DNA of 64,000 bases from an uncultured Vicinamibacterales bacterium (GCA_964372095.1 CAYJPV010000011.1:14252-78251), one strand, 5' to 3'; numbered from the stretch's first letter, positions 2,483 to 55,372 are shown. Made by a program: numbers and translations. The notes: generated by a model not told the origin, from the sequence alone.

Positions 2483-2516
2483 GGGGGGTCGGGGATTGGG
2501 GATTGGGGGTTGGGGC
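2483..2516. repeat. Heptamer tandem array (GGGGATT-type), G4-capable
   Basis: ggggggtcggggattggggattgggggttgggg in the hpnC-hpnD spacer. A partner caatcccca lies a few nt downstream. Confidence 0.9.
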
Positions 2517-2538: not shown

Positions 2539-3435
2539 TCAATCCCCACTCCGCGCCCTCCACGTCAGGGCCTGCCACACCAGGGCAGGAATGTCCGCTT
2601 TGCCAAGCGCCGGCCGTTTCGCAAAGACGTCGAACCGGCCCGCCTCCAACCTGTCGAGAATCCGGCTGCCGCCCAGCCAGGTGAAACGCAGCTCGTACTT
2701 CAGCCGGCCTGGCACACCGTCACACACGCTCCTGCCTTCAGCGAACAGCGCGCGCGTCCGCGCGGCCGCTTCGGCGAGCACGTTTCGCCATGCCGCAGTC
2801 AGCTGCCGCGCTGCAAGATCTTCCTCGCGGGCACCGAGGCGTTCCCGGTCCGCCAGCGGCAGATAGACCCGCTCCTTCTGCCAGTCCCGCTCGACGTCCT
2901 GGAGGAAATTGGTCAACTGGAGCGCCGTGCACATGGCGTCGGACGCCCGATCGAGGGCCTGATCGGCGGTGCCCGCCACGCGCAGGACCAGCCTGCCGAC
3001 GGGATTGGCCGAGCGGCGGCAATAGTCGAGCAGATCCGCCCACGTGTCGTACCGCTTCTTGACGACATCCTGCCTGAACGCGCTGATGAGGTCGTCGAAC
3101 AGAGACAAGGGCAGGTGATGGAGGCGGATCGTGGCGGCCAGCGCCTTGAAAACCGGTGCGACGGGCTCGGCTGAGGCGTTCCCCGGACCTGAAGGTCCGG
3201 GGCTACGTACGGCGGCGTGCAATTGCGCCTGCCACACGTCGAGCTGTGCCAGGCGGGCGTCGGCCGGCACGTCGCCTTCGTCGGCCAGATCGTCCGCGGT
3301 CCGCGCGAACGCATAGATGGCCGCGACGTGCGGCCGCATCCGCCGCGGCAGCAGCAACGACGCCACCGGGAAGTTCTCGTAGTGCGACTGGGCCAGGCGT
3401 TCGCACTCGGCGTACGCGTCGGCGAGTCTCACCAC
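2539..3435 (-). CDS. hpnC: Hydroxysqualene synthase HpnC (squalene synthase family)
   Basis: ORF 2539..3672 trimmed to the in-frame GTG at 3435 or 3432 (VVRLADAYAECERLAQSHYENFPVAS). Motifs ARTADDLADEG and QLTNFLQDVERD are present. The start overlaps the stop of the upstream gene (GTGGTGA). Confidence 0.85.
   Translation of the reverse strand: MVRLADAYAECERLAQSHYENFPVASLLLPRRMRPHVAAIYAFARTADDLADEGDVPADARLAQLDVWQAQLHAAVRSPGPSGPGNASAEPVAPVFKALAATIRLHHLPLSLFDDLISAFRQDVVKKRYDTWADLLDYCRRSANPVGRLVLRVAGTADQALDRASDAMCTALQLTNFLQDVERDWQKERVYLPLADRERLGAREEDLAARQLTAAWRNVLAEAAARTRALFAEGRSVCDGVPGRLKYELRFTWLGGSRILDRLEAGRFDVFAKRPALGKADIPALVWQALTWRARSGD
3181..3210. repeat. REP-like palindrome located inside the hpnC coding sequence, in frame
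   Basis: ccccggacctgaaggtccggggctacgtac has the same design as the intergenic copies. On the minus strand it is translated as VRSPGPSGPGN. Confidence 0.85.
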
Positions 3436-4016: not shown

Positions 4017-4742
4017 ATGCCCAAACGCCCCCCGATACGTTCACGAAAACCGTGCCTCGACATCCCCCCGCCGCCGCAACGCCAGCAATTCCGGCGGAGA
4101 CTCCTGCGCTGGTACGACAGCCACGGACGGGACCTGCCGTGGCGCAAGACGCCCGACCCGTACCACATCCTGGTCTCGGAGGTGATGCTGCAGCAGACCC
4201 AGGTGGATCGGGTGCTGCCAAAGTACGGCGAGTGGCTCGGAAGATACCCGTCGCTCGCGGCACTGGCCGACACTCCGGTCGACGAAGCCGTCAGGACGTG
4301 GTACCCGCTGGGCTACAACATCAGGCCGCGGCGCCTGCACGCCATTGCGCGGGAGTCGGTTGAACGGTTCGGCGGGGCGCTGCCGTCGGACGCCGACACG
4401 TTGCGTTCGTTCAAGGGCATCGGCCCGTACACCGCTGGCGCCATCATGAGCTTTGCGTTCGGCAAACGTGCCGCCATCCTGGATACCAACGTCGCGCGGG
4501 TCCTCTTGCGCGTATTCGTCGGCCCGGGCGACCCGAAGCAGCATCAACTGAAGAAGCACCTGTGGAAGGTGTCGGAAACGCTCGTTCCCGTGAAGCGGGT
4601 CTTCGACTTCAATCAGGCCATCATGGACCTCGGCGCGATGGTCTGTACCGCACGAAAACCCCAGTGCCCCGTGTGCCCGATGGCGGGGATGTGCCGCACG
4701 CAACTCGGGGCTCGGGACTCGGGGCTCGGGGCTCGGGGCTAG
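4017..4742 (+). CDS. mutY: Short MutY-like adenine DNA glycosylase (HhH-GPD with 4Fe-4S loop, no C-terminal MutT-like domain)
   Basis: ATG 4017 within ORF 3156..4742. Motifs: LLRWYDSHGRDLPWR, HhH FKGIGPYTAGAI, catalytic-region ILDTNVARVL, and cluster CTARKPQCPVCPMAGMC (C-x6-C-x2-C-x5-C). Only 241 aa. The last 13 codons are translated GGGGCTC repeat. Confidence 0.8.
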   Translation: MPKRPPIRSRKPCLDIPPPPQRQQFRRRLLRWYDSHGRDLPWRKTPDPYHILVSEVMLQQTQVDRVLPKYGEWLGRYPSLAALADTPVDEAVRTWYPLGYNIRPRRLHAIARESVERFGGALPSDADTLRSFKGIGPYTAGAIMSFAFGKRAAILDTNVARVLLRVFVGPGDPKQHQLKKHLWKVSETLVPVKRVFDFNQAIMDLGAMVCTARKPQCPVCPMAGMCRTQLGARDSGLGARG

Positions 4743-4758
4743 GGACTCGGGGCTCGGA
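4705..4758. repeat. Heptamer tandem array (GGGGCTC)n, G4-capable
   Basis: ctcggggctcgggactcggggctcggggctcggggctagggactcggggctcgg. It supplies the mutY-like TAG stop at 4740-4742. Confidence 0.9.
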
Positions 4759-5238: not shown

Positions 5239-5300
5239 CTACTGACTACTGACTACTGCCTACTTGCTTCCTGCTTCTTGCTTCTTGCTTCTTGCTTCTG
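5239..5300. repeat. Composite heptamer arrays (CTACTGA)n + (CTTGCTT)n
   Basis: ctactgactactgactactgcctacttgcttcctgcttcttgcttcttgcttcttgcttctg. Confidence 0.9.
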
Positions 5301-8075: not shown

Positions 8076-8378
8076 ATGTGGACGCTGAAAGTCGTGCCGG
8101 CCGATCCGGAACACCCCCTGACCTTCCGCCTGCTGCCCGGCCACCTGCGAACGATCGGCCGAGGCGCCGGCGCCACGTTTATCGTGGACGCGCCGCTCAT
8201 CTCGCGCGTGCACTGCCGCATCACGGTCGGGGAGGACGGTCTCGTCGAAGTCACGGACCTCGACAGCACCAACGGTACCTGGATCGACGGGAACAAGGTC
8301 GAGACGGCCCCGCTCTCCGAAGGCCAGATCCTCCGCGTCGGGCGTGTGGAATTCGTACTCGAGCGCGATTGTACGTAG
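8076..8378 (+). CDS. FHA domain protein (100 aa)
   Basis: ATG 8076, 3 nt after the hydrolase stop. RTIGRGAGATFIVDAPLISRVHCRI ... DLDSTNGTWIDGNKV is a canonical FHA core. Confidence 0.8.
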   Translation: MWTLKVVPADPEHPLTFRLLPGHLRTIGRGAGATFIVDAPLISRVHCRITVGEDGLVEVTDLDSTNGTWIDGNKVETAPLSEGQILRVGRVEFVLERDCT

Positions 8379-8502
8379 CCCCGGACCTTCCGCCTTCGCG
8401 CGGTGCGCTTCGGCGGACCGCCGCAGCCTTGGCGGAGGCGGTCAGGTCCAGGGTACCCCGGGGCTAAAGCCCCGGGGCTACGTACGACGTACCGCGTAGC
8501 CC
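8371..8502. repeat. Cluster of REP-like palindromes, the first carrying a ~53-nt nested insertion
   Basis: The sequence is gtacgtagccccggaccttc[...53 nt with ccgcc/ggcgg hairpins...]aggtccaggg, then ccccggggctaaagccccggggctacgtac, then gtaccgcgtagccc. It supplies the FHA gene TAG stop at 8376-8378. Confidence 0.85.
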
Positions 8503-9141
8503 TCAGCGCAGGAACGGATTCGTGCGCCGTTCGTCGCCGATCGTCGTGGCAGGCCCGTGCCCCGGGTGCACCACCGTGTCGTCCGGGAAAAGGAACAACA
8601 CGTTTCTGATCGACGCAATCAACGTCTTGTAGTCACCACGGGGCAGGTCCGTCCGGCCGATAGAACCCGCAAAGAGGGTGTCCCCCACGATCAACTCGTT
8701 CACCCCCGCCTGCATGGGGCCCACCTCGAGACACACACCGCCGGGGCTGTGACCCGGCGTGTGGTGGACGGTGGCACCAAACCCTCCCCACGTCAGATGC
8801 TGGCCGGCATCGACGAAGAAGTCCGGCGGACCTGGCTGTTCGATGTCGTAGCCAAACATCCGGCCCTGCTCCCGGGCGACTTCGTAGAGGAACAGGTCGT
8901 CGCGATGCAGGCCGACGGGCGCGCCGGTGGCCCTGCGCGCCGCGTTCACCCCCGCGACATGATCCACGTGGGCGTGGGTCAGCAGGATGCACCGCACCGA
9001 CAGACCGAGGCCTGTGACCAGACGGAGCAGGTCTTCGACTTCGTCGCCTGGATCGATCAGGATCGCATCGCGGCTGGTCTCGGATGCAATCAGGAATCCG
9101 TTCTTCATGAAGGGCTCTGCGGCCCGGGTTTCGAAGATCAT
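8503..9141 (-). CDS. MBL-fold metallo-hydrolase (glyoxalase II-like)
   Basis: 212 aa. Contains the LTHAHVDHVAG metal motif and a later HTPGHSPGG. Confidence 0.85.
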   Translation of the reverse strand: MIFETRAAEPFMKNGFLIASETSRDAILIDPGDEVEDLLRLVTGLGLSVRCILLTHAHVDHVAGVNAARRATGAPVGLHRDDLFLYEVAREQGRMFGYDIEQPGPPDFFVDAGQHLTWGGFGATVHHTPGHSPGGVCLEVGPMQAGVNELIVGDTLFAGSIGRTDLPRGDYKTLIASIRNVLFLFPDDTVVHPGHGPATTIGDERRTNPFLR

Positions 9142-9172
9142 CGGCTATCGGCTTTCGGCTTTCGGCTATCGA
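9141..9172. repeat. Heptamer tandem array (CGGCTAT/CGGCTTT)n abutting the MBL start codon
   Basis: tcggctatcggctttcggctttcggctatcga. Confidence 0.9.
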
Positions 9173-10189: not shown

Positions 10190-12771
10190 CGCGCGGCGGC
10201 AGGCGCATCGGGGCGGCGGTCGATGCCGTCCAGGGCTTTGGCGGCTTCTCCTCGCGCGCGGCCGAGGGCCGACTCCATGCTCGTCACGGCCCCCCCGACA
10301 CGCGGATCGCCCGTCACGGCGTCCCAGGGAAACAGGTGCTGACGAATCGACGGCAGCGGACTCAGCACCGCGCTCGCCGCATTCCACATTCGAAGGGTCC
10401 TGGCATCGCCGGCTGCCAGGCTCAGCCAGTAGGCGGCCTCTCGGGCGTCCTGCGTCGCCGCCGCCGCGGTTGCCGCGCACCGCGCCCATGGGGCCGGGTC
10501 CGCAGCCGCCCGGGCCCCCTGGATGATCTCGGCCGCCAGCCGGTCCGCTTCCGTGCGATGGCCCTCGAGCCTTCTCACGCCAGCCAGCAGCGCTCGCGCA
10601 TCGCACAATCCGGGATTCATCCTCGTCACGATTCCCAGCAGGGCGGCCGCGTCGGCATAACGCCGCTCCCGCACCAGTGCGACGGCCCGAACCAGGGCCC
10701 CCGGCGTGAAATCCGCCACGCTGCGGGCCGCCGCCACAATGGGGTCGGCACTCGGCCCGATGAGGATTGCCCGCTGACGCAGCGCGTCCCACCACGGAGC
10801 CGACGGCGCGAACGCCTGCCCGCGCGCGACGGCCGCGAGCGTATCGGCGCGGTGGCCCGCCTGCAGCGCCGCTGCGGCCTCCTGATAGAAGGCCATCGGC
10901 AGAAGCGGATCGTTGTCGGCCGCGCGGGTCGAGTAGGCCACGGCCCGCGCAGGATCGAGATCCCGAACCACGTCGGCGACGGCCAGCCACGCCGACGCGC
11001 TCGACCGGTCGAGTTCCACGGCCCGGCGCAGGTGTCTGAACGCCTCCGGATACGTATCCGACGATACGCCCAGCGCGAGATGGGCTGAAGCGAGGTCGGG
11101 GTCGGCCGTCGCCGCCTGTTCGGCGATTTGCCGCACGCGGTCCCGGGTCGTCGCGTAGTCTCCCCGGGCCTCGAACACGACCTCGGTGTACAGCGACAAG
11201 GCCAGCGCCGCCTGAGCCTCGACGATGCCCGGGTCGGCGTCGATGGCGGTCTGGAACAGCTGTGAGGCCCGGGCCGTGTCACCTTCGGCCCGCGCTTCCA
11301 GGCCCTGCAGATAGACGTCGTACGCGTCCGCATCGACGGTCCGCATCGCGGATCGATCGTTGGAGACCGACGCCGCCCCGGTCATGCCCAGTCTTGTCGC
11401 CACATCCCGGGCAATTCGCGACTGCAACGCCGCGAGATCCCGGCCTGCCCCTCCATACCGGGCGCTCCACGCAATTCGGCCGTCGACCACGTCGATCAAC
11501 TCGACGTTGATCTCGAACGACGCCCAGCCGTCAGACCCGGGACCGATCAGGCCGGTCAGCAGCACCTCCGCCCCGGTTTCCGTGCCCACGGCGGCGGTCG
11601 GCTTGTTCCCCAGCCTCCGGATGGAAGTCCTCCCCTTCACCGTCACCCCGGGGATCTGCCCCAGGCGGCGGGCCAGTTCTTCGGCAACGCCTCCGCCCAC
11701 GTAGTCCTTCAGCACGTCGCCGCTTCCGACGGCGAAGGGCACGACGGCCACCACGGGCTCCAACGGCCGGCCGAGTTTGCCGGTCCACGCACGCGCGAAC
11801 CACTCACGCCAGGTCCAGCCTGCAATCGCGATGGCCGCGATCAGCAGGGTGATCAGCAGCACCGTCCTGCCCAGTGTCCGTTCCGGCGCGCGGGTGGATT
11901 CCATCCCGGCAACGTCCTGAGCGGCTTCACGCTGGTGCACGGCCGCCGCGGCCGCCCGCAGGTCGCCCGCCAGCGCGGCGGCGCTGTCGTACCGATCCGC
12001 CACGCTCTTGGAGAGGGCCCTGGCCACGATCTGGTCCAGAGCCGGAGGCACGTCGCTGTTGACCGTGCTGGGTGGGGGCGGGGTTGCCTGCGTGACCTTC
12101 ACGGCGGTGTCGGTCGGGTTCGTTCCTTCGAACGGCTGCCGGCCCGTGAGCAACTGGTACAGGATGACCCCGAGCGAGAAGATGTCGGCCCGGTGGTCGG
12201 TGGCCTGTCCCAGCACCTGCTCGGGCGCCATGTACGCAATCGCCGCCGGTCCGAGCGCCGCGCCACGCTGGTCCAGCCGCACGGCCGTCAGGCGCCCCGG
12301 GCCGCCTGGCTGCCAGAACGCCAGCCCGAAGTCGAGGATCTTGAGGCGTCCCTTCGGTGTGATGACCAGCGACGACGGCGTCAGCGCCCCATGGACCAGG
12401 CCAAAGGAGTGCGCGTCGGCCAGGCCGTCGGCAGCCTGCGTGCACAAGTCGAGCGTCCGCCGGAGGTTGACGGGCCGGCCAGCCGCCAGATCACCCAGGC
12501 GTTCGCCTGGCACGAACTCATAGACCAGGTACGGGTGCTCCTGGTGCTCGCCGACGTCAAAGAGGGTCGCAACGTTCGGATGCGAGATCTCGGTAAACGG
12601 TCGCACCGACTCGACGAAGCCCGCGCGGGCCGCAGCGTCCGCTGACGGGTCACCCAGGACACGGACGGCCACGGTACGGCCGGCACGGGTGTCGCGCGCA
12701 CGGTACACGGTGCCGTACCCGCCGGTACCCAGCAGCCCGAGGAGTTCATAGTGTCCGATGGTATCGGCCAT
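10186..12771 (-). CDS. Ser/Thr protein kinase with a TM segment and C-terminal TPR-like repeats
   Basis: 861 aa. GTGGYGTVYRARD glycine loop, YMAPEQ, HRADIFSLGVILYQLLTG, one hydrophobic helix, and a long Ala/Asp-rich helical-repeat C-terminus. Confidence 0.9.
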   Translation of the reverse strand: MADTIGHYELLGLLGTGGYGTVYRARDTRAGRTVAVRVLGDPSADAAARAGFVESVRPFTEISHPNVATLFDVGEHQEHPYLVYEFVPGERLGDLAAGRPVNLRRTLDLCTQAADGLADAHSFGLVHGALTPSSLVITPKGRLKILDFGLAFWQPGGPGRLTAVRLDQRGAALGPAAIAYMAPEQVLGQATDHRADIFSLGVILYQLLTGRQPFEGTNPTDTAVKVTQATPPPPSTVNSDVPPALDQIVARALSKSVADRYDSAAALAGDLRAAAAAVHQREAAQDVAGMESTRAPERTLGRTVLLITLLIAAIAIAGWTWREWFARAWTGKLGRPLEPVVAVVPFAVGSGDVLKDYVGGGVAEELARRLGQIPGVTVKGRTSIRRLGNKPTAAVGTETGAEVLLTGLIGPGSDGWASFEINVELIDVVDGRIAWSARYGGAGRDLAALQSRIARDVATRLGMTGAASVSNDRSAMRTVDADAYDVYLQGLEARAEGDTARASQLFQTAIDADPGIVEAQAALALSLYTEVVFEARGDYATTRDRVRQIAEQAATADPDLASAHLALGVSSDTYPEAFRHLRRAVELDRSSASAWLAVADVVRDLDPARAVAYSTRAADNDPLLPMAFYQEAAAALQAGHRADTLAAVARGQAFAPSAPWWDALRQRAILIGPSADPIVAAARSVADFTPGALVRAVALVRERRYADAAALLGIVTRMNPGLCDARALLAGVRRLEGHRTEADRLAAEIIQGARAAADPAPWARCAATAAAATQDAREAAYWLSLAAGDARTLRMWNAASAVLSPLPSIRQHLFPWDAVTGDPRVGGAVTSMESALGRARGEAAKALDGIDRRPDAPAAAR

Positions 12772-14851: not shown

Positions 14852-14883
14852 CCTTACAGGGTATCAGGGGAGGGGGGTGGACA

Positions 14884-14956
14884 AGTAGAGAGTAGACAGT
14901 AGGAAGTAGACAGTAGGAAGTAGGAAGTAGGAAGTAGGAAGTAGGAAGCAAGGAGC
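14884..14956. repeat. Heptamer tandem array (GTAGACA/GTAGGAA)n
   Basis: agtagagagtagacagtaggaagtagacagtaggaagtaggaagtaggaagtaggaagtaggaagcaagg. Confidence 0.9.
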
Positions 14957-14987
14957 AGGGGACCCAGCCAGCAAGCCCACCTGCGCA

Positions 14988-15024
14988 GGCCGCGAAACCG
15001 CGTGTGAGAGGCGGCTTCGCGGCC
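14988..15024 (-). terminator. Stem-loop downstream of the ECF sigma gene
   Basis: ggccgcgaaaccgc / gcggcttcgcggcc. 14-bp stem with one mismatch and an 8-9 nt loop. No U-tract. Confidence 0.35.
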
Positions 15025-15042
15025 CGTTCTCGTGGGTTCCAG

Positions 15043-17477: not shown

Positions 17478-19625
17478 ATGCGCAGACTCGTTCGTCTCGT
17501 CATGTGCGGCGTCATGCTCGCCGGGTCCGCCCAGGCTCAGCAGGTCGACTGGTCGGCCAAACCGGCTCAGTCCGAACGCAGCCGCAATTACGACGCCCGG
17601 CACTACCGCGTCGCCATCCGGCTCGACCTCGAGCGGGCGTCCTTCGATGGGAATGCCACGGTGTCGATCACCGCGCTGGCAGACGGGCTCGAGACCTGCG
17701 TGCTGGACGCCGAAGAGTTCACCGTCACCAGCGTCGTGAGCGACCGGGGCGAGCCCTTGCGGTTCGAGCAGTCGGCCACGGAGTTGACCGTGCATTTTGC
17801 GCGCCCGCTGACGCGCGGCGAAACACGGTCGTTCACGTGCACCTACGCGGGCCGCGGGCCCAAAGCCGGCCTCCGCTTCGTTGCCGAGTCCCCGGACAAC
17901 CCGGCCCTCGTCTACTCGGACTCGTGGCCCAACAACGTGCACCACTGGTTCCCGTGTTTCGACTACCCGAACGACAAGGCCACCAACGAGATCATCGCGA
18001 CGGTGAAAACCGGACTCAAGGTCGCGGCCAACGGCCGGCTGGTCGCCGTGGCCGAAGACGCTGCCGCCGGCACAGTCACCTACCACTGGTCTCAGGACCT
18101 TCCCCATTCCACGTACCTCATGTTCCTGGCCGCCGCGCCCTACGCCGTGGTCGAAGGACGGAGCGGCAACCTCCCCATCAGCTACTGGGTCTACCCGAAG
18201 GACGTGGACAAGGTGCAGTCCACCTACGGCCAGACGCCCAGGATGATCGAGTTCTTCAACCGGACGTACGGCTATGACTATCCGTGGCAGAAGTACGACC
18301 AGGTGTCGGTGCCGTCGGGCGGCGGGGCCGAGAGCACGTCAGCCACGGCCATGACCCACAGCATCATGGTGGACGAGGCGCGCGCCGCCGACTTCCCGGC
18401 CATCGGCATCGTGTCGCACGAGATCGCCCACCAGTGGTGGGGCAACCTCATCACGCTGCGCAGCTGGGCCCACACGTGGATGAACGAGAGCTTCGCCACG
18501 TACTCGGACTACCTCTACTTCCGCCACGAGCGGGGCGACGATGAGGGGGCGGTGAACCTGGAGGGCAAACTCGCCGCCTATCTGCGCGAGGCCAGGACGC
18601 GCTATATCCGGCCCATCGTGACGGACCGGTACGAACGGCCGGGCGACATGTTCGACTCGCACACGTATCCCAAGGGCGCGCGCGTGCTGCACATGCTGCG
18701 GAACATCCTCGGGGACGAGCCATTCTTCGCCGTCCTGCGGCACTTCCTGCACCGGTACGCGTTCGACGCGGTCGATACGCACGACTTCATCCGGTCGGTG
18801 AAGACCGTCACCGGCCGGAACCTCGACTGGTTCTTCGACCAGTGGCTCTTCAAGCCGGGGCACCCGATCTTCGACGTGCGCAGCGCCTGGGATCCGGCCC
18901 GCAAAGTCGTCACGGTCACGGTGCGCCAGGTCCAGGACACGACCCGCGGTGTCCCCCTGTTCCGCGCGCCCGTGTCCATTGCCGTCGTCACAGCCGAGGG
19001 CCGCACGAATACCACGGTGTGGGTGCAGAAGCAGGAGGACGTGTTCGAGTTGCCCGCGGCCTCGCGGCCTCTGCTGGTCGACTTCGACGATGACAATACC
19101 CTCGTCAAGGAGATGACGGTCGCCAGGCCCGCCGACGAATGGCGTTACCAGCTGCGTCACGACGAAGTCATCGGCCGGATGGCGGCGGCCGCCGGCCTGG
19201 CGGCGCTGGCGAACGACCCGGAGACCTTCGATGCGCTGGCGGCCAGCGCCCGCACCGACCCGTTCTGGGCCGTGCGGCGAAGCGCGGTGGAAGCCCTGGG
19301 CAGACTGTCAGACACCCGCGTACGCGCTGTTCTCACGCAGGCCAGCGGTGATGCGAACTCGGCCGTGCGGGCAGCGGCCGTGGCGGCGCTGGGCGGCCTG
19401 AAAGACCCGGGCCTGCTGGGCTTCTTCAAGGAACGGTTCGAGACGGACCCGAGTGATCTGGTCAGGACCGAAGCCGTGCGGGCAATCGGCAACACGGGCG
19501 ACCGGGCCGCCATCACGTTTCTCGAGCGAGCCGTCTCGGTGCCCTCGCACCGGAACATGGTCGGCCGGGCTGCGGCTCAGGCGCTGAAGTCAGTACCCAA
19601 ACACCGTCCGGAACTGGTCTTCTAG
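17478..19625 (+). CDS. Secreted M1-family aminopeptidase with C-terminal HEAT-like repeats
   Basis: ATG 17478 gives the signal peptide MRRLVRLVMCGVMLAGSAQA. Zinc motif HEIAHQWWGNLITLRSWAHTWMNESFATY (HExxH-x18-E). Confidence 0.9.
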   Translation: MRRLVRLVMCGVMLAGSAQAQQVDWSAKPAQSERSRNYDARHYRVAIRLDLERASFDGNATVSITALADGLETCVLDAEEFTVTSVVSDRGEPLRFEQSATELTVHFARPLTRGETRSFTCTYAGRGPKAGLRFVAESPDNPALVYSDSWPNNVHHWFPCFDYPNDKATNEIIATVKTGLKVAANGRLVAVAEDAAAGTVTYHWSQDLPHSTYLMFLAAAPYAVVEGRSGNLPISYWVYPKDVDKVQSTYGQTPRMIEFFNRTYGYDYPWQKYDQVSVPSGGGAESTSATAMTHSIMVDEARAADFPAIGIVSHEIAHQWWGNLITLRSWAHTWMNESFATYSDYLYFRHERGDDEGAVNLEGKLAAYLREARTRYIRPIVTDRYERPGDMFDSHTYPKGARVLHMLRNILGDEPFFAVLRHFLHRYAFDAVDTHDFIRSVKTVTGRNLDWFFDQWLFKPGHPIFDVRSAWDPARKVVTVTVRQVQDTTRGVPLFRAPVSIAVVTAEGRTNTTVWVQKQEDVFELPAASRPLLVDFDDDNTLVKEMTVARPADEWRYQLRHDEVIGRMAAAAGLAALANDPETFDALAASARTDPFWAVRRSAVEALGRLSDTRVRAVLTQASGDANSAVRAAAVAALGGLKDPGLLGFFKERFETDPSDLVRTEAVRAIGNTGDRAAITFLERAVSVPSHRNMVGRAAAQALKSVPKHRPELVF

Positions 19626-20231
19626 CCGATCTTCAGCTTCGGCGATGGAGATGTCGCGGCCGGTCAGTTTGCGGAGGGAGGTCACGCCCCGATCAGTGAT
19701 GCCGCAGGGAACGATGAGCTTGAAGAAGTCGAGGTTGGTGGCGACGTTGTAGGCAAATCCGTGGCTCGTCACCCACCGCTGGATTCGGACGCCGATCGCC
19801 CCGATCTTCTCGGCCTCGACCCACGCGCCGGTCAGCCCCTCGATGCGGCCGGCGTCGAAACCGTAATCGTGCGTGACGCGGATCATCACCTCTTCCAGGT
19901 CCCGCACGTACTTGTGCACGTCGCAGCGGTCCGGTTTCAGGCTGATGATGGGGTACCCGACGACCTGTCCGGGGCCGTGGTACGTCACATCTCCCCCGCG
20001 GCCGGTCTCGTGGAGTTCGACGCCGAGCGACAGGAGCCGCTCCGGCGTCGCCAGGACATGCTGGCGGCTGACACCCGCCTTCACACCCAGCGTGAGCACG
20101 TGCGTGTGCTGCAGCAGGAGCAGCGTGTCATCGATGTCGCCCGCAATCCGCTGCGTCACGAGTTGCCGCTGCAGGTCGAGACCTTCGGCGTAGGAGATGA
20201 CACCGAGGCGGCGGACGGTCAGTGGACGCAT
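19590..20231 (-). CDS. lipB: Octanoyltransferase LipB
   Basis: 213 aa. MRPLTVRRLGVISYAEGLDLQRQL ... RGGDVTYHGPGQVVGYPI ... KIGAIGVRI ... PCG. Confidence 0.9.
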   Translation of the reverse strand: MRPLTVRRLGVISYAEGLDLQRQLVTQRIAGDIDDTLLLLQHTHVLTLGVKAGVSRQHVLATPERLLSLGVELHETGRGGDVTYHGPGQVVGYPIISLKPDRCDVHKYVRDLEEVMIRVTHDYGFDAGRIEGLTGAWVEAEKIGAIGVRIQRWVTSHGFAYNVATNLDFFKLIVPCGITDRGVTSLRKLTGRDISIAEAEDRLEDQFRTVFGY

Positions 20232-20232
20232 G

Positions 20233-20350
20233 CTCGGGGCTCGGGGCTCGGGGCTCGGGGCTCGGGGCTCGGGGCCTGGGGATTGGGGTTTGGGGTTTGG
20301 GACTCGACAGTGCCTTTCCCTAGCCCCTAGCCCCTGGTCCCTAGCCCCTG
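20233..20350. repeat. Composite heptamer arrays filling the whole E2-lipB spacer: (GGGGCTC)n, (GGGGTTT/GGGGATT), core, (CCCTAGC)n
   Basis: The G-rich arm is 20233-20303. A core containing tgcctttcccta follows. The C-rich inverted partner is 20317-20350. Confidence 0.9.
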
Positions 20351-20353
20351 AGA

Positions 20354-21643
20354 TCAGACCGACCCCTCGTCCCAGTTCTCGAGCTGTTTCTTGACGTGCG
20401 ACATAAATTCGTCGGCCACGGCGCCGTCGATCAGCCGGTGGTCGTAGCCCAGCGTCAGGTACCCCTTCATCCTGATGGCAATCGCATCGTCGATGACGGC
20501 CACGCGCTTTTCGATGTGGCCGACGCCCATGATGGCCACCTGCGGCTGGCTGATGATGGGCATGCCGAAGAGCGCACCGAATACGCCGGGGTTCGTGATC
20601 GTGAACGTGCCGCCTTGCACCTCGTCGGGTTTCAGCTGCTTCGCCCGCGCGCGCGCGGCGAGGTCCACCACGGCCCGGCTCAGGCCGAGCAGGTTCTTCT
20701 CGTCAGCCCGCTTGATCACCGGCACGATCAACCCCCAGTCGAGGGCGACGGCCACGCCGATGTTGACGTCCTTCTTGTAGACGACGTGGTCGCCGTCGAT
20801 CGAGGTGTTGACGATGGGCACGGCCTTCAGCCCATCGACGACCGCCTTGATGATGAAGGACATGAAGGTGAGCTTGGCTCCGGCGCGCTCGTAGTCGGCC
20901 TTCTTCGCCTGGCGGATCTTGTTGACCCGGGTATAGTCGACTTCGAACACCGAATGGACGTGCGCGGAGGTCCGCTTGCTGAACACCATGTGTTCGGCGA
21001 TCTTCTTCCGCATCACCGACATCGGCACGATTTCGACGTTCTCGCCCGGCTTGAAGGCCGGGGCGTGCGCTGCGGGGGCCGGAGGCGGAGCGGGAGCGGC
21101 TGCGGCCGGAGCCGGAGCGGCTGCGGGCGCCCCGCCGATAAATCCGAGGATATCGTTCTTGGTCACACGCCCGCCCAGGCCGGTCCCGGGGATCTGCGCG
21201 ATCTCCACGTTGTGTTCCCGGGCGATCTTCCTGACGAGTGGCGACGATTTCTGCCGGCGCAGATCATCTGCGCTGACGGGGGCAGCCGGCCCGGGTTCGG
21301 CCCGCGGCGGCGCGGGCGCGGCAACAGGCTCGACCCTGACGGGAGCCGGCGGGGCGGCGGCCGGAGCCGGGGCAGCAACGGCCGCGGGCGCAGGCGCGCC
21401 GGCGGGAACGGCGTCGCCGATTACGGCCACGACCGAGTTCACAGGGACGGTCTCGCCCTCCTTCGCCTTGATCTCGAGCAGTACGCCCGCGGTCGGCGAG
21501 GGGATTTCGGCGTCCACTTTGTCGGTCGAGATCTCGAACAGCGGTTCGTCGCGATCGACGCGTTCGCCGACCTTCTTGATCCAGCGAACGATCGTGCCTT
21601 CCGCAATCGACTCGCCCATCTGCGGCATTACGACATCGGACAT
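20354..21643 (-). CDS. 2-oxo acid dehydrogenase E2 (dihydrolipoyllysine-residue acyltransferase)
   Basis: Lipoyl domain EISTDKVDAEIPSP, Ala/Pro linkers, E3-binding SPLVRKIAREHNVEIAQIPGTGLGGRVTKNDI, and catalytic DHRLIDGA. Confidence 0.9.
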   Translation of the reverse strand: MSDVVMPQMGESIAEGTIVRWIKKVGERVDRDEPLFEISTDKVDAEIPSPTAGVLLEIKAKEGETVPVNSVVAVIGDAVPAGAPAPAAVAAPAPAAAPPAPVRVEPVAAPAPPRAEPGPAAPVSADDLRRQKSSPLVRKIAREHNVEIAQIPGTGLGGRVTKNDILGFIGGAPAAAPAPAAAAPAPPPAPAAHAPAFKPGENVEIVPMSVMRKKIAEHMVFSKRTSAHVHSVFEVDYTRVNKIRQAKKADYERAGAKLTFMSFIIKAVVDGLKAVPIVNTSIDGDHVVYKKDVNIGVAVALDWGLIVPVIKRADEKNLLGLSRAVVDLAARARAKQLKPDEVQGGTFTITNPGVFGALFGMPIISQPQVAIMGVGHIEKRVAVIDDAIAIRMKGYLTLGYDHRLIDGAVADEFMSHVKKQLENWDEGSV

Positions 21644-21663
21644 ATTCCCCTCGCTCTGATGCT

Positions 21664-21849
21664 TGGCTCGGCTGATCGGCTATCGGCGTTCGGCCATCGG
21701 CCATCGGCGTTCGGCTATCGGACGGCGGAACGGACAGTAGACAGTAGTCAGTAGTCAGTAGTCAGTAGTCAGTAGGGAGTATTCCTACTTCCTACTTCCT
21801 ACTTCCTACTTCCTACTTCCTGATTCCTGCTTCCTGCTTCTTGCTTCCG
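21664..21849. repeat. Three consecutive heptamer arrays filling the lpdA-E2 spacer: (CGGCNAT)n, (GTAGTCA)n, inverted (CTACTTC)n/(CTGCTTC)n
   Basis: The subarrays are at 21664-21722, 21734-21776 and 21784-21849. gtagggagta / tacttcctac form the hairpin apex. Confidence 0.9.
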
Positions 21850-21866
21850 GCACACGTCAGCCCCCG

Positions 21867-23285
21867 CTACACGTGTATCGCCGCCCCGTGGGCCGCGTGG
21901 GCGGCTTCGCCCATGGCTTCCGACATGGTCGGGTGCGCGTGGATCGTGCGAATCAGTTCTTCGACGGTGCACTCGGTCCGGAGGGCCAGCACGGCTTCGG
22001 CCACGAGTTCGGTCGCCCGCGGTCCGATGATGTGGACGCCAAGCACCTCGTCGTACTTCTTCTCGGCCACGATCTTCACGAAGCCCTCGGTTTCGGCGGC
22101 GATGCGGGCACGGCCGAGCACCTGAAACGGGAAGGTCCCCACGCGCACGTCGTACCCGCGCTCGGCGGCCTGTTTCTCGGTCAGGCCCACACTGCCGATC
22201 TCCGGGTCGCTGTAGGTACACTTCGGCACGTGGTCGTAGTTCAGCGGCGTCACGGCCTTGCCGGCCAGGCGTTCCGCCAGCAGGACGCCCTCCGCGGTCG
22301 ACAGGTGCGCCAACTGAAGGTGTCCCGGCTTGCCGAACGAGATCACGTCGCCGACCGCCGAGATGTTCGGCACGCTGGTCCGGAACAGCTCGTCCACCAC
22401 CACGTACCCGCGGTCCATCTTGATGCCGGCCGATTCGGCCCCGAGGCCGGCGGTCACGGGCCCGCGCCCGGTGGCCACCAGGAGGAACGCCGCCGACATC
22501 TTCTGCGCGGAGCCGTCGGGCATCTTCACGTCGATCTCGACGGCGTCAGCGCCGGCCCTCGCCGCGGTCACGGACGCCGACGTGTGGAATTTGATCCCGC
22601 TCTTCTTGAAGGCCTTCTCGAGTTCCACCGAGACGGCTTCATCCTCGAGTGGCACCAGGTGCGGCAGCAGTTCGATGACGGTGACGTCCGACCCAAACCG
22701 CTTGAACACGGTTGCGAACTCCACCCCGATGGGCCCGCTGCCCATGATGATGATGGACTTCGGCACTTCGCGCAGGTGAATAGCCTCGTCGCTCGTGATG
22801 ATCCGTGTGCGGTCCAGTTCGATGCCGGGAACGCTCCGCGCGCTCGATCCCGTGGCGATGACAATCTCCCTGGCCGTCAGGGTCACCGGGGCGTCGCCGC
22901 CGGTCACCTCGACGGTGCCCTTGCCGGCCAGGCGGGCGCTGCCTTTGATCCAGTCGATGTTGTTCTTCTTGAAGAGGAACTCGATGCCCCGGGTGAGGAT
23001 CGTGACGATCTTGTCCTTGCGCCCCTGCACCTGGTTCATGTCGATGCGCGCGGGCTGGTCCCCCAGAATCAGGCCCCATTCTTTGGCGTTCTGGGCGATC
23101 TTCAGGGCGTGCGCGTGCTCGAGCAACGCCTTGGTCGGGATACACCCCCAGTTCAGGCACGTGCCCCCCAGGGTCTTCTGCCGCTCGACCACGGCCACCT
23201 TCAACCCGAGTTGGGCGGCGCGGATCGCGGCGGGGTATCCGCCGGTTCCGGCGCCGATCACGACGACGTCGTACTGGTTCGCCAC
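21867..23285 (-). CDS. lpdA: Dihydrolipoyl dehydrogenase (E3)
   Basis: ORF 21867..23636 trimmed to GTG 23285, which is preceded by AGGAG. YDVVVIGAGTGGYPAAIRAAQLG. Redox-active GGTCLNWGCIPTK. C-terminal HAHPTMSEA. Confidence 0.9.
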   Translation of the reverse strand: MANQYDVVVIGAGTGGYPAAIRAAQLGLKVAVVERQKTLGGTCLNWGCIPTKALLEHAHALKIAQNAKEWGLILGDQPARIDMNQVQGRKDKIVTILTRGIEFLFKKNNIDWIKGSARLAGKGTVEVTGGDAPVTLTAREIVIATGSSARSVPGIELDRTRIITSDEAIHLREVPKSIIIMGSGPIGVEFATVFKRFGSDVTVIELLPHLVPLEDEAVSVELEKAFKKSGIKFHTSASVTAARAGADAVEIDVKMPDGSAQKMSAAFLLVATGRGPVTAGLGAESAGIKMDRGYVVVDELFRTSVPNISAVGDVISFGKPGHLQLAHLSTAEGVLLAERLAGKAVTPLNYDHVPKCTYSDPEIGSVGLTEKQAAERGYDVRVGTFPFQVLGRARIAAETEGFVKIVAEKKYDEVLGVHIIGPRATELVAEAVLALRTECTVEELIRTIHAHPTMSEAMGEAAHAAHGAAIHV

Positions 23286-23299
23286 TGGTCTGCTCCTGA

Positions 23300-23800
23300 T
23301 CAGTTGATCTTCACACGGGCCCCGTGCAGGGCTTTGCGCGCGGGCGCATAGTCGGAATCGTGCTCGAGGGCCCGGCCGTAACATTCGAGGGCCCGGCTCA
23401 GCTGGTCCTTGGCCTCGTAGACGCGGCCGAGGTTGTACCACGGGAACTGATAGCTCTCGTAGCGGGTTGCGGCCGTCGCCTTCTCGAGCCACGGGATCGC
23501 GTCGTCCGGCCGCTCCATCTCGATCAGGTAGGCCCCGATGTCGTTGTAGGGGTTGCCGAATTCGGGATCCACGTCGATGGCCTTGCGGCACTCGGCAATG
23601 GCGTCCTCGAGGCGGCCCTGGAAGGAGTACGTCCACCCCAGGAAGGTGTGGGCCTCGGCCGTCGGATGCTGCTGGATGGACGCCCGGTACAATGTGGCGG
23701 CCTCGTCCAGTTCGCCGGACATCTGGCGGTCGTAGGCCTGCTGGAACAGGGCCAGCGCCTTGTCGATCTTCGATTTTCGGGCGGAGTGTGATTGGTCCAT
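23300..23800 (-). CDS. TPR repeat protein (166 aa)
   Basis: Repeated A..Y...I...P....A...LG motifs. 14 nt upstream of lpdA on the same strand. Confidence 0.75.
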   Translation of the reverse strand: MDQSHSARKSKIDKALALFQQAYDRQMSGELDEAATLYRASIQQHPTAEAHTFLGWTYSFQGRLEDAIAECRKAIDVDPEFGNPYNDIGAYLIEMERPDDAIPWLEKATAATRYESYQFPWYNLGRVYEAKDQLSRALECYGRALEHDSDYAPARKALHGARVKIN

Positions 23801-23907
23801 GGGTGGAGACCCGGCGTCCGTGCGTGAGCGCTCTCGGCGCGGGCGGATTTCCGGGGCAGAACTTTAGGGTACAATCAGCGTCCCTCTCATTTCAAGCGAG
23901 GACCGTC

Positions 23908-25296
<1,389 letters not shown>

Positions 25297-31064: not shown

Positions 31065-31412
31065 ATGTCAAGTGCCAAGATTGAAACATTCGCCAACCCG
31101 CGCCCCTCGCGCGACTATGAGATCGTCATCAACGCGCCCGAGTTCACCTCGGTGTGTCCCATGACCGGGCTCCCCGACTTCGGGGAGATACGGATTTCGT
31201 ACGTCCCGGATCAACTCTGTCTCGAGCTCAAAGCCCTCAAGTACTACCTGCTCGAGTACCGCAACCAGGGCATCTTCTACGAAGCGGCAACCAATCAGAT
31301 TCTCGACGACCTCGCCGCCGCCTGCCAGCCCCGCCGCATGACCGTTACGGGCATCTTCACCGCCCGCGGCGGCATCAGCACGACGGTGACGGCGCACTAC
31401 GCTGGGGGTTAG
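31065..31412 (+). CDS. queF: NADPH-dependent 7-cyano-7-deazaguanine reductase (type I QueF)
   Basis: 115 aa. EFTSVCPMTGLPDFGEIRISYVP and LELKALKYYLLEYRNQGIFYE. Confidence 0.95.
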   Translation: MSSAKIETFANPRPSRDYEIVINAPEFTSVCPMTGLPDFGEIRISYVPDQLCLELKALKYYLLEYRNQGIFYEAATNQILDDLAAACQPRRMTVTGIFTARGGISTTVTAHYAGG

Positions 31413-31422
31413 GGGTTGGGGG
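31404..31422. repeat. Short heptamer array (GGGGTTA)n
   Basis: gggggttaggggttggggg. It supplies the queF TAG stop. Confidence 0.8.
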
Positions 31423-31437
31423 CACTGCCTCCTGAAC

Positions 31438-31490
31438 GTAGCCCCGGACCTTTAGGTCCGGGGACCCCGGGGCTGAAGCCCCGGGGCTAC
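31438..31490. repeat. Two adjacent REP-like palindromes (type A and type B)
   Basis: gtagccccggacctttaggtccgggg + accccggggctgaagccccggggctac. Confidence 0.9.
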
Positions 31491-31511
31491 GAAACGAACG
31501 ATGCCGAACCC

Positions 31512-39605: not shown

Positions 39606-39635
39606 GTACGTAGCCCCGGACCTTCAGGTCCGGGG
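39606..39635. repeat. REP-like palindrome (type A)
   Basis: gtacgtagccccggaccttcaggtccgggg. Confidence 0.9.
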
Positions 39636-40445: not shown

Positions 40446-41897
40446 ATGGATGCCATGCACACACTGACTCGAATCACGTTGTCTGCCCTGCTCTGCGGGG
40501 CGCTCGGCGCAACCGCCTGGGCGCAGACCGCGCCGGTCGCTCCCGTCAGACCGGCCGCCCCGGTGGCACCCGTCGCGCCCGTCCTGGCCGAGACTCTGGC
40601 GTACGAAGCCGCCGCATTGGCCGACACCCACCTCGCGATCGAAGCGGAAGCCCTCGCGCTCGCCCGGGTTGCTGCCGGAACGATGGCGTTCGCGGACCAG
40701 GACCAGAGCGCCAAAGAACGGGAAGCACAGCGGACCCGCGAACTGGCCGCACGGGAGCAGGAGCGTGCGGCCCGGGACGCATCCCGCGACCGCTCGCTGT
40801 ACTCGAGGGGAACCGCCGCGCTCGACGCGGGCCGTTGGAGCCGGGCCGTCGAAGCGTTCGCGGCTGCCGCCGAACTGAAAGGCTCGCGAGCGGACGGCGC
40901 CCTCTACTGGAAGGCGTACGCCGAGTACAAGCTGGCACAGAAGGCCGCCGCCCTGGCCACCCTGCAGCAACTCAAGGCAGCCTACCCCGAAAGCCCCTGG
41001 CTGAAAGAAAGCCGCGCGCTCGAAGTCGAGATGTCGGGTTCGGCGGCGGCGACGGAAGCGACGGCGTCTGACGAAGAGCTGAAACTGCTGGCCATCAACG
41101 GGTTGATGCGCGTGGAAGACGAGCGGGCCATCCCGATGCTCGAGAAGATCCTGACCTCGCAGCAGTCGCCCCAGCTGAAGAAACGCGCGCTGTTCGTCCT
41201 GTCCCAGAGCAAGTCACCGAAAGCGCGCGACGCCGTGCTGGGCATCGCCAAGGGCGCGTCCAATCCGGACCTGCAACTGGAGGCGCTGCGGTACGTGGCG
41301 ATGTTCGGCGGGACGCAGAACCTGCAGGTCCTCAGCGACATCTACACATCCTCGAAGGACGTGGACGTCAAGCGGCGCATCCTCGAGGCCTACATGATCG
41401 GCGGGCAGCGGGAGCTGGTGCTGAACGCGGCCCGGTCGGAATCCGACAGTGCCCTTCGCGCGCAGGCCGTGCGGCTGCTGGGCGCGATGCGCGCGACAGC
41501 CGAACTCGACAAGCTCTATCAGGCCGAGTCGTCGGCCGAGGTCAAGCGAGCCGTCATCGAAGCCTACATGGCCGGCGGCGACGCCGAACGCCTCGCCCAC
41601 GTGGCTCAGAACGACAAGGACGCCGCCATGAGGCTCCGTGCCATCGAGATGCTGGGCGCGCTGGGCCGCGGCAAGAACACCGCGGTCATGACCGGCCTCT
41701 ACTACGCCGACGGCCAGAACAACGACGCAAAACGCGCCGTGATCAACGGTCTCTTCATGGCGGGCGACGCAACGACGCTCATCGACATCGCGCGCAAAGA
41801 AACGGATCCCGCGTTGCGCAAGTCACTCGTGGAACGCCTCAGCCTCATGAAGTCCAAGGAAGCCACGGACTTTCTGATGGAGATCATCAACAAGTAG
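40446..41897 (+). CDS. Secreted HEAT/TPR-repeat protein
   Basis: Signal peptide ITLSALLCGALGATAWAQ. Repeated units such as VRLLGAMR, AIEMLGAL and A..AL... of PBS-lyase HEAT type. Confidence 0.75.
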   Translation: MDAMHTLTRITLSALLCGALGATAWAQTAPVAPVRPAAPVAPVAPVLAETLAYEAAALADTHLAIEAEALALARVAAGTMAFADQDQSAKEREAQRTRELAAREQERAARDASRDRSLYSRGTAALDAGRWSRAVEAFAAAAELKGSRADGALYWKAYAEYKLAQKAAALATLQQLKAAYPESPWLKESRALEVEMSGSAAATEATASDEELKLLAINGLMRVEDERAIPMLEKILTSQQSPQLKKRALFVLSQSKSPKARDAVLGIAKGASNPDLQLEALRYVAMFGGTQNLQVLSDIYTSSKDVDVKRRILEAYMIGGQRELVLNAARSESDSALRAQAVRLLGAMRATAELDKLYQAESSAEVKRAVIEAYMAGGDAERLAHVAQNDKDAAMRLRAIEMLGALGRGKNTAVMTGLYYADGQNNDAKRAVINGLFMAGDATTLIDIARKETDPALRKSLVERLSLMKSKEATDFLMEIINK

Positions 41898-42002: not shown

Positions 42003-42013
42003 GAGAGGTGTCT

Positions 42014-55359: not shown

Positions 55360-55372
55360 GGGGACATCGTAC

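Follow-up and report, generated by a model that had tools for sequence, protein, structure and literature searches.

Heptanucleotide tandem arrays as arms of dispersed intergenic hairpins in a Vicinamibacterales genome

What are the many short arrays of 7-nt units that lie between the genes of a GC-rich acidobacterial genome, and do they do anything for the genes they separate? The question is raised by 64,000 nucleotides from an uncultured Vicinamibacterales bacterium (GCA_964372095.1 CAYJPV010000011.1:14252-78251; this whole stretch is here referred to as the window), in which head-to-tail heptamer arrays occupy, e.g., both spacers next to the gene for the E2 component of a 2-oxoacid dehydrogenase. 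An original prediction, made from the sequence alone, described the arrays as pervasive, intergenic and similar to the short tandemly repeated repetitive (STRR) sequences of cyanobacteria, and this description is upheld. The answer proposed here is that the arrays are the arms of lineage-specific, dispersed intergenic hairpin elements, similar to repetitive extragenic palindromic (REP) sequences and miniature inverted-repeat transposable elements (MITEs), which act as transcribed punctuation; the probability of this reading as a whole is put at about 0.5. Its structural part, i.e., dispersed hairpins that are gained, lost or replaced as whole copies and that vary in arm length by steps of 7 nt, is well supported. 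By analogy with known systems, the elements are probably transcribed, and a role as non-essential mRNA stem-loop punctuation within or at the end of operons is advanced tentatively, at somewhat less than even odds.

Period-7 arrays in the spacers of the window

Arrays were called with Tandem Repeats Finder (TRF) and with a separate periodicity scan requiring at least three copies, both over the 64-kb window. TRF returned 27 rows of period 7, of which 25 have 3.4-9.6 copies and almost all are without indels (0%), and arrays were found at all 15 loci at which they had been predicted; two of these loci are weak, namely, 1-14 with only 2 copies (it is cut by the window edge) and 31404-31422 with only 2.7. 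The periodicity scan yielded 21 period-7 arrays totalling 781 nt, merely 2-8 short arrays for periods 4-6, and none for periods 8-13. Over 50 dinucleotide-preserving shuffles of the window, the mean number of period-7 arrays was 0.12 and the maximum 1. Period 7 prevails as well in 1.73 Mb of related loci, with 92 arrays, compared with 8 and 11 for periods 8 and 9.

The gene map, which was based on GC content at third codon positions (GC3) and checked with Pfam, holds 46 genes, and GC content in the window is 64-72% (67% overall). Most strictly periodic bases (581 of 660, 88%) fall in the roughly 5 kb of intergenic DNA that make up about 8% of the window, and a tally from the spacer list and the TRF rows places arrays in 13 of the 31 spacers of at least 60 nt. 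Coding sequence is free of arrays save for the last few codons, where the TAG of an array serves as the stop codon. Within the 64 kb, the arrays show each feature expected of heptanucleotide long simple sequence repeats (SSRs), namely, at least three head-to-tail copies, an excess over chance and over other periods, and a non-coding location at many loci. According to Pfam, the genes that flank them are housekeeping genes of all kinds. LipB (19590-20231), E2 (20354-21643) and E3/LpdA (21867-23297), all on the minus strand, were confirmed in this way, as was the MBL-fold hydrolase at the 9139 locus; arrays do abut the ATG of lipB (20229-20231) and that of the hydrolase (9139-9141), as had been noticed before. 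The best matches of the E2 protein are all from Acidobacteriota, and the nearest species representative is a Vicinamibacterales metagenome-assembled genome with 71% E2 identity.

No motif is common to all units among the 113 arrays considered, which comprise 74 distinct canonical units. The many unit families that were distinguished originally fold into a few graded superfamilies, namely, GGGGNNN/NNNCCCC, NNAGTAG/AAGCAG and AGCCGAN.

Paired arms, a shared centre and fast turnover

Neighbouring arrays at most 120 nt apart were compared in the window and in about 160 related loci. Sixteen of the 29 pairs are reverse-complementary with at most one mismatch per unit, compared with 2.7% of random pairs, and only two of the 29 are similar in direct orientation; the longest inverted repeats of the window are the arrays themselves. 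Where arrays are paired in this way, the spacer becomes a long imperfect hairpin. In a typical copy, a short non-repetitive centre separates one run of 7-nt units from a second, complementary run, making the spacer a quasi-palindrome, and the hairpins measure 60-190 nt with repetitive arms of variable length. Computed folds contain long stems with heptad-periodic 1x1 or 2x2 internal loops, and the z-scores of array spacers range from -3 to -7.5. With mononucleotide shuffles, z was -7.0 for 54330-54435 (-55.9 kcal/mol), -6.6 and -7.5 on the two strands of 61465-61585, and -5.9 and -6.6 for 41890-42035; with dinucleotide shuffles, the mRNA-sense spacers gave -3.1 for E2-lipB (-60.7 kcal/mol) and -3.2 for lpdA-E2 (-84.6 kcal/mol). 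The E2-lipB stem starts 4 nt past the E2 UGA and closes 4 nt ahead of the lipB AUG. The pair counts and the folds bear out the earlier proposal of partly complementary inverted arrays in foldable spacers, whereas the statement that these two spacers consist wholly of arrays was too strong: arrays cover about 83% of the lpdA-E2 spacer, and the E2-lipB spacer is made up of two arms and a non-repetitive 22-nt centre.

The centre shows that the hairpins are related. An exact 13-mer, GGGAAAGRCASTG, lies at the centre of three G-rich/C-rich hairpins at unrelated sites (20232-20353, 55373-55483 and 61472-61576); it occurs three times in the window, each time at a hairpin centre, and not once in 100 shuffles. 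Two of the three hairpins have 21 of 22 central bases in common (GGGAAAGRCAGTGGATGTCCCC), and a fourth window copy (43156-43219) aligns across a centre of the same type. Copies of close relatives at the E2-lipB, QueF-M14 and PanE 3' sites also align over the centre, with different arm units and copy numbers, so that the alignment comprises nine copies from six distinct sites in this genome and its relatives. Since the centre is common to copies at other sites in close relatives, the hairpins constitute a dispersed element family. The element is in 7-nt register throughout, from the NNNGGGG units of the G-arm over three centre heptads to the NNNCCCC units of the C-arm, and at least one sub-family is characterised by a conserved centre, GGGAAAGGCAGTGGATGTCCCC, with the G-rich arm before and the C-rich arm after it. 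The AGTAG-type hairpin at 54338-54428 has a 10-mer, AAGCAGGCAG, in common with the lpdA-E2 hairpin of one relative (L171), in opposite orientation, a match that was extended by eye to about 25 nt (CAGTAG-SAAGCAGGCAG...). More distant contigs have recurring unit pairs of their own with partly conserved inner stems (L065, L023 and L016), e.g., (GCTATTG)n...(CCAACAG)n at four sites in 20 kb of a Gemmatimonadaceae contig (L065), and two copies of (AATTGAA)n-AAATCGGAG...CCGATCTTT-(TTCAATT)n with differing loops in a Thermoanaerobaculia contig (L023). The presence of the centre at six sites and the clean presence/absence differences would suit MITE-like elements; a single copy has a 4-nt GTAC flank, which could stem from microhomology at a deletion.

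Close relatives were found through protein searches and look-ups of exact proteins. Between them and the window, array spacers (71-223 nt long) are 30-66% identical, compared with 86-96% DNA identity in genes and mostly 88-98% in array-free spacers. The arms of orthologous copies differ in their number of complete 7-nt units, and a hairpin found in one genome may be missing from another or have a different one in its place. In the lpdA-E2 spacer, the (GGAAGTA)5/(CTACTGA)5 arms of the window correspond to 2 and 4 units in L171 and to single-unit remnants around an inserted REP-like hairpin in L166, and the hairpin is wholly missing in L170, whose lpdA is 96% identical; the 35 nt next to the Shine-Dalgarno sequence are conserved in all four. 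The E2-lipB layout (GGGGCTA)n-centre-(CCCCNNN)n-ATG is retained in three of four relatives, with C-arm copy numbers of about 10, 5, 7.5 and 0, and the stop-to-start stem topology is kept in three relatives despite different copy numbers. In the QueF-M14 spacer, L166 and L170 have a full element where the window keeps a G-arm stump (31404-31422). Each of four genomes has a different hairpin element in the spacer 3' of PanE: the AGTAG type is found in the window, the GGGG type in L173 and a REP-like hairpin in L175, and L174 carries an AGAGGCT array there. The spacer 5' of PanE is 25 nt long in L173 and L174 and 140 nt in the window by virtue of a 111-nt GTAC-flanked element (55373-55483), which is missing from L173 and L174.

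Complementarity outlasts these changes. Directly 3' of lpdA, one orthologous site carries GGAAGTA/CTACTGA in the window, AGAAGCA/CTTGCTT in one distant relative (L001) and AGAAGAC/GTCTTCT in another (L087), each still complementary, and L096 and L086 have non-repetitive hairpins at this place. In L008, ACGGAGA/TCTCCGT arrays lie on either side of E2, although the gene preceding E2 in this locus is possibly not lpdA. Arrays of TCTCCGT(T/G) and ACGGAGA flanking E2 in other Acidobacteriota (L008:9800-10000 and 11362-11560; L093:5330-5500) were a side observation, and their TCTCCGT(T/G) unit equals the TCTCCGTS[Y] consensus of the paired sites of Geobacter metallireducens, a member of another phylum.

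The arrays also shape the ends of genes. Eight genes have their stop codon inside an array, and all eight stops are TAG; this codon is contained in 11 of the 21 array units of the window compared with 16% expected, and it ends 24 of the 46 called genes (16 end in TGA and 6 in TAA), making it the commonest stop. Such stop usage is unusual for a genome of 67% GC. Across the 113 arrays, units with any stop triplet amount to 55% versus 47% expected, which is unconvincing, and the triplet bias of the units is lineage-specific, with TAG in this genome and TGA plus CAG elsewhere; the units of other Acidobacteriota loci are enriched in TGA and CAG (CTGA core) rather than TAG. As 7 is not a multiple of 3, a TAG-bearing unit supplies a stop in every frame within 21 nt, which probably explains why arrays can reach up to, or slightly into, gene ends. 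In the EndoIII/HhH-GPD protein, the last 12 residues (LGARDSGLGARG) and the TAG are encoded by the CTCGGGG array (4704-4742, 39 nt). PanE homologues are 308-320 aa long in relatives, and the C-terminus of PanE enters an array in the window and in L173. The supply of TAG stops to eight genes, the very fast turnover between close relatives and the nature of the arrays as arms of dispersed elements with a conserved centre had all been left out of the original prediction. The array loci of the window are collected in Table 1.

Table 1. Heptamer arrays and associated hairpins in the 64-kb window; sequences with U are in mRNA sense
Position	Strand	Array or element	Context
1-14		CCTCTAG x2	Cut by window edge; unit family as at 61472-61508
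2483-2516		GGGGATT x3.6	Between two squalene/phytoene synthase genes (- strand)
2540-2561		Weak partner of the GGGGATT array, CAATCCCC...	
4704-4757		CTCGGGG x7.7	Overlaps 3' end of EndoIII-like open reading frame 4017-4742 (+)
5239-5299		CTACTGA x3.7 abutting CTTGCTT x5.3	GCV_T-NUDIX spacer, genes on - strand; followed by an AGCCGAA-type stretch ahead of the NUDIX Shine-Dalgarno sequence
9140-9171		ATCGGCT x4.6	Divergent spacer; runs into the MBL-fold hydrolase ATG (9139-9141, - strand)
14883-14948		AAGTAGG/AGTAGAC x9.4, solo array	Before SDR gene start
14976-15036		Non-repetitive hairpin	3' of ECF sigma gene, beyond solo array 14883-14948
20232-20353	-	G-arm/centre/C-arm element	E2-lipB spacer
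20318-20349	-	G-arm (GGGGCUA)n	E2-lipB spacer
20308-20320	-	Centre GGGAAAGGCACUG	E2-lipB spacer
20232-20301	-	C-arm (CCCCAAA/CCCCGAG)n	E2-lipB spacer; ends at lipB AUG
21644-21866	-	lpdA-E2 spacer	
21782-21848	-	(AGAAGCA/GGAAGUA)n	lpdA-E2 spacer; pairs with (CUACUGA)n at 21735-21775
21668-21721	-	(AGCCGAN)n	lpdA-E2 spacer; then GAGGGG Shine-Dalgarno sequence and E2 AUG
31404-31422	+	GGGGTTA x2.7, remnant G-arm	Contains QueF TAG stop
31437-31491		Two GTAG-tagged REP-like hairpins	After 31404-31422
41896-42002		AGGGACA x4 paired with TTGCCCC x4.1, then CCCACGC x3.9	First AGGGACA unit gives TAG stop 41895-41897; ends at GGAGAGG, Shine-Dalgarno sequence of next HEAT-repeat gene
43099-43219	-	CAGTAGA x4.1 (43099-43127) and G-arm/centre/C-arm element	Convergent spacer; overlaps TAG stop of S9 peptidase gene
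43156-43219	-	(GGGAUUG)5 43181-43219, centre GGGAAAGGCGACCC, short arm 43156-43173	Element within 43099-43219
54338-54428		(CAGTAGA)3.9, centre including AAGCAGGCAGTG, (CTACTGA)3.7	Convergent-spacer hairpin; both flanking TAG stops within arms, 54355-54357 (+) and 54424-54426 (-)
55373-55483	+	111-nt element: (GGGATTG/GGGATTA)n, centre GGGAAAGGCAGTGGATGTCCCC, (CTTGCCCC)n	Divergent spacer; GTAC at 55369-55372 and 55484-55487
61472-61576	-	(CUAGGGG/CUAGGGA)n 61527-61576, centre GGGAAAGACAGUGGAUGUCCCC, (CUAGCCU)5 61472-61508	Convergent spacer; both flanking TAG stops within arms
62988-63045		GGCTCCG x3.4 and GCCTGTA x4.4	Divergent spacer

A separate, true GTAG-REP family of REP-like palindromes (CGTAGCCCCGGRSC...GSYCCGGGGCTACG; CGTAGCCCCGG...) is also present in the window (positions 1611-1642, 3197-3206, 8371-8485, 31437-31491, 39610-39619 and 45296-45305), with nine exact GTAGCCCCGG sites. 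When its coordinates are set against the gene map, the genes ending at 8378 and 1639 take their TAG stop from the GTAG of this family. The arm heptamer TAGCCCC/GGGGCTA of this family is identical to the array unit at 20318-20349 and 61527-61576, which hints that some arrays may have been seeded from REP arms. In relatives, REP-like hairpins (CCGGGYCTTCAGRCCCGG) lie within heptamer arrays or array hairpins of the lpdA-E2 spacer (L166:9850-9885 and L087:150-175), and at the PanE 3' site one (L175:2030-2055) stands in place of the array hairpin. The two classes appear to target or replace each other. The 289-nt spacer at 1345-1643 has no heptamer arrays, folds over a long range at -167 kcal/mol (z about -6), ends in two REP-like copies and has no Rfam match. 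Lastly, a conserved 32-aa open reading frame directly 5' of a radical SAM gene (473 aa) is found in L081:4474-4572 (the window equivalent) and in its L166 and L170 orthologues, adjoining the gene of an SBP_bac_5 protein; the two look like a precursor/maturase pair of the type that yields ribosomally synthesised and post-translationally modified peptides.

Punctuation, neutral by-product or other roles

The preferred model can be put as a series of steps. The arms would grow and shrink in 7-nt steps by slipped-strand mispairing, and their complementarity would be kept by hairpin-templated template switching, by selection, or by both. Copies would arrive in new spacers by a route of transposition or recombination, and solo arrays would be leftovers once the partner arm has been deleted. 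If transcribed with the flanking genes, the elements would fold in the mRNA into long imperfect stem-loops that span from the upstream stop to the downstream start and that may protect upstream mRNA 3' ends, offer RNase processing sites, and occlude or couple the downstream start, so that arm length could serve as an evolvable tuning knob. This action is modelled on that of REP sequences, bacterial interspersed mosaic elements (BIMEs), Correia elements or the 5'-untranslated region (UTR) hairpin of Haemophilus hmw. A function as intrinsic (Rho-independent) terminators was rejected, as no U-tracts follow the hairpins and the elements occur in divergent spacers as well. A promoter/terminator consensus scan of 19400-24000 found nothing in the lpdA-E2 or E2-lipB spacer, and Rfam 15 at gathering threshold gave 0 matches across the whole window.

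Several observations weigh against this model. The sense strand is the more stable one in 5 and the less stable one in 8 of 13 codirectional pairs, and the distribution of paired arrays over codirectional, convergent and divergent spacers (13:5:4) is close to background, with which a pure terminator role does not fit. Elements are lost in close relatives without obvious consequence, so that any function must be dispensable. Among the window genes scanned there is no transposase or RAYT (REP-associated tyrosine transposase) gene, and a flank resembling a target-site duplication is seen on one copy only; its GTAC may equally be the microhomology of a deletion in the relatives. The 7-nt step itself is not accounted for by the model; the sole published idea relayed by our sources is a polymerase-footprint effect (Mrazek 2007, via PMC4679880 and PMC4692102).

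Since there is no sense-strand advantage and no orientation bias, and since loss is easy, a neutral or selfish reading is a strong rival, which we consider unlikely but the best of the alternatives. The arrays would then be by-products at the DNA level, i.e., slippage microsatellites inverted by template switching at quasi-palindromes, which fill any non-essential spacer and whose hairpin potential is a mutational side effect with no RNA or regulatory role. Such an origin would also accommodate the fast turnover, the housekeeping nature of neighbours of all kinds, and the exactness with which arrays halt at functional boundaries (stop codons, Shine-Dalgarno sequences and start codons). It sits less well with the 13-22-nt centre that is conserved among copies at unrelated sites, with the stop-to-start stem topology that survives changes of copy number, and with the persistence of hairpins, some of them non-repetitive, 3' of lpdA down to about 70% protein identity.

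A bolder version of the dispersed-element model, which is improbable at present, holds that heptad-arm hairpins are a distinct class across phyla, possibly mobile, whose spread and 7-nt growth are driven by a dedicated mechanism and not by generic slippage. Acidobacteriota, Gemmatimonadota and Geobacter, and perhaps Xanthomonas and cyanobacteria, may harbour such a class, and by analogy the mechanism could involve a Y1/RAYT-like or other enzyme, or expansion coupled to transcription and RNase III as in hmw. If true, this would explain the long-noted heptanucleotide excess in bacterial genomes, and the elements would be a genome-wide, evolvable means of punctuating operons.

Three further alternatives are weaker than the neutral or selfish reading. 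In the first, which has perhaps a slim chance, the arrays are bound cooperatively by a protein that recognises single- or double-stranded nucleic acid with a 7-nt register, and paired arrays are regulatory sites; candidates are cold-shock or S1-type OB-fold proteins on RNA, and a nucleoid protein like integration host factor (IHF) or HU on DNA. The strict period despite varying sequence would suit such a reader, and some arrays lie at start codons without a Shine-Dalgarno sequence, e.g., those of lipB and the MBL hydrolase. According to the review in PMC4679880, CspB binds heptamer direct repeats with one protein per heptamer, and IHF/HU has been guessed to bind the paired sites of Geobacter (Aklujkar et al., PMC2700814). 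However, one genome contains several unrelated unit families, units drift gradually within arrays, and copy number and presence are poorly conserved.

The second, that G-rich arrays act through G-quadruplexes (and an i-motif on the C-strand) in DNA or RNA, is very improbable. Nine of the 13 canonical quadruplex motifs of the window lie in arrays, and the GGGGATT unit equals a Nostoc repeat that forms a quadruplex in vitro (PMC4692102). The pattern of at least four runs of at least three G with short loops is predicted in nine array regions only, however; no more than about half of the arrays are rich in G, quadruplexes are impossible for those with AGTAG, AGCCGAN and CTTGCTT units, and G-arms are paired with C-arms, which favours the hairpin. 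Rehm et al. found no regulatory role (PMC4692102).

The third, phase variation at contingency loci, in which slippage of copy number would switch or grade the expression of adjacent genes in populations, had been among the functions considered originally and is still less credible. Tandem repeats do adjoin start codons and promoters, and the H. influenzae hmw heptamer (ATCTTTC)n acts in this manner (PMC12721329). The idea is nevertheless unsupported here, as the flanking genes belong to core metabolism and not to surface structures, the arrays are short (3-10 copies), and independent assemblies do not differ in copy number: no difference was seen among four Logan assemblies of this strain, in which perfect array cores are cut in the unitigs so that the polymorphism test is weak, or among four samples with a relative termed P0002, over the spacer parts that each contig covers. 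Of other candidates, CRISPR was dropped as there are no spacers, coding repeats as the period is not a multiple of 3, and telomere-like templated synthesis as there are too many unit types.

That the arrays are an artefact of short-read metagenome assembly has a negligible chance, even though the window comes from a SPAdes-type metagenome contig of about 12x coverage and unitig assemblies are broken by perfect arrays. An E2 protein of exactly identical sequence is encoded on 20 contigs. An independent assembly (ENA ERZ13692934 NODE_55, 185,933 bp) is identical to the window across 21 kb, and four Logan unitig contigs of about 1.5 kb from separate runs (L082-L085) match every imperfect array exactly; this agreement indicates that the arrays are real. 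Homologous arrays occupy orthologous sites in independent JGI, ENA and Logan samples, and, at up to 70 nt, the arrays are probably shorter than the sequencing reads. The four Logan contigs carry the E2 gene alone, with both ends inside perfect arrays, and a Logan contig of a related strain (L172) is likewise confined to E2 and broken inside perfect arrays. Short-read unitig assemblies are thus interrupted by the arrays precisely at the borders of genes, which makes the elements a systematic source of contig breaks and helps explain the fragmented genomes recovered for such lineages.

Relation to known repeat systems

STRR arrays have been known since about 1990 from heterocystous cyanobacteria, with CCCCAGT, TTGGTCA and CAACAGT as canonical units. 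To our knowledge, the STRR literature contains no description of paired inverted arms around a conserved centre. The arrays of the window are not STRR in the strict sense, as the host belongs to the Acidobacteriota and the units differ save for GGGGATT, which also occurs in Nostoc (PMC4692102). They resemble STRR (Calothrix, Nostoc) and the long SSRs surveyed by Mrazek et al. (2007) in their strict 7-nt units, their excess over other periods and their intergenic position at many loci (PMC4692102, PMC4679880); unlike in STRR, most arrays here are paired inverted arms around a centre, and the conserved centre defines an element family.

That no such system was known in high-GC lineages, as first supposed, does not hold. 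Heptanucleotide repeats are relayed as the most abundant class of long simple repeats in many bacteria, including Xanthomonas and Burkholderia (Mrazek 2007, via PMC4679880 and PMC4692102). The GGGNATC and GGGGA(C/T)T repeats of Xanthomonas and Nostoc are likewise G-rich heptamers in non-coding DNA near the ends of open reading frames; some form inverted pairs, and at a given intergenic site closely related species differ in their length and sequence (Rehm et al. 2015, PMC4692102); Xanthomonas is also a high-GC host, and the GGGGATT unit is identical. Those genomes have one unit type each, read as quadruplex-forming (PMC4692102), whereas the present arrays comprise several unit families, not all of them G-rich, and are marked by a common non-repetitive centre and by gain and loss of whole elements.

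Neither are paired arrays new in themselves, since inverted pairs of 7-9-mers between genes were annotated in Geobacter metallireducens as 'global regulator sites', i.e., opposite-strand pairs of 3-5 tandem 7-9-nt units (MTYCTGA, TCTCCGTS[Y] and GTTGCTYN) at variable distance between genes, e.g., proB-proA, at dozens of loci (Aklujkar et al. 2009, PMC2700814). The TCTCCGT unit recurs in the acidobacterial locus L008. The Geobacter sites were interpreted as binding sites for IHF/HU, without analysis of turnover or of hairpin elements in that paper (PMC2700814), and periods of 8-9 are common in them, while 7 dominates here (92 arrays versus 8 and 11).

GTAG-tagged REP sequences and BIMEs are similarly dispersed intergenic palindromes in species-specific families at gene ends (Di Nocera et al. 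2013, PMC3733652); GTAG-REPs often supply a TAG stop codon and are thought to act in mRNA stabilisation or termination (PMC3733652). The array hairpins are not members of this class, which is defined by many copies of a short imperfect palindrome that has a conserved consensus and a GTAG or CGTC tag: REPs are single palindromes of 20-40 bp and fixed length, unlike the 60-190 nt and variable number of 7-nt arm units seen here. In the hmw1A 5'-UTR of H. influenzae, (ATCTTTC)n is transcribed, as would be the case for the present arrays, and pairs with a G-rich partner, so that it makes up one arm of a long mRNA hairpin beside the start codon; this hairpin is processed by RNase III, and arm length tunes expression (PMC12721329). 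The hmw1A repeat is confined to a single virulence locus, has at least 11 copies and is phase-variable in populations (PMC12721329), whereas the arrays described here occupy many housekeeping loci, have 3-10 repeats and two repetitive arms, and no variation within populations was seen in the assemblies compared. The TAACTGA repeats of Beggiatoaceae, cyanobacteria and Bacteroidetes are also intergenic heptamers with stop-bearing units, which often end a few nt from a start codon without a canonical ribosome binding site (MacGregor 2015, PMC4679880). They have one dominant unit, inverted in only 1 of 170 sets (PMC4679880), compared with many units and pairing as the rule here.

No report of heptamer repeats in Acidobacteria, Gemmatimonadetes or Vicinamibacter was found in the open-access literature. 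Judging by the literature that could be searched, novelty lies in the host lineages, the conserved centre, the documented rapid turnover and the supply of stop codons. The heptanucleotide excess has been known since 2007. For an abundant, poorly studied soil phylum, it is now seen that the arrays are mostly paired arms of dispersed hairpins that conserve their centre, that they are the fastest-evolving sequences of the locus, and that they remodel gene ends through TAG stops and short C-terminal tails. This provides a testable model which joins simple repeats with REP/MITE-like palindromes, two classes that are usually treated apart.

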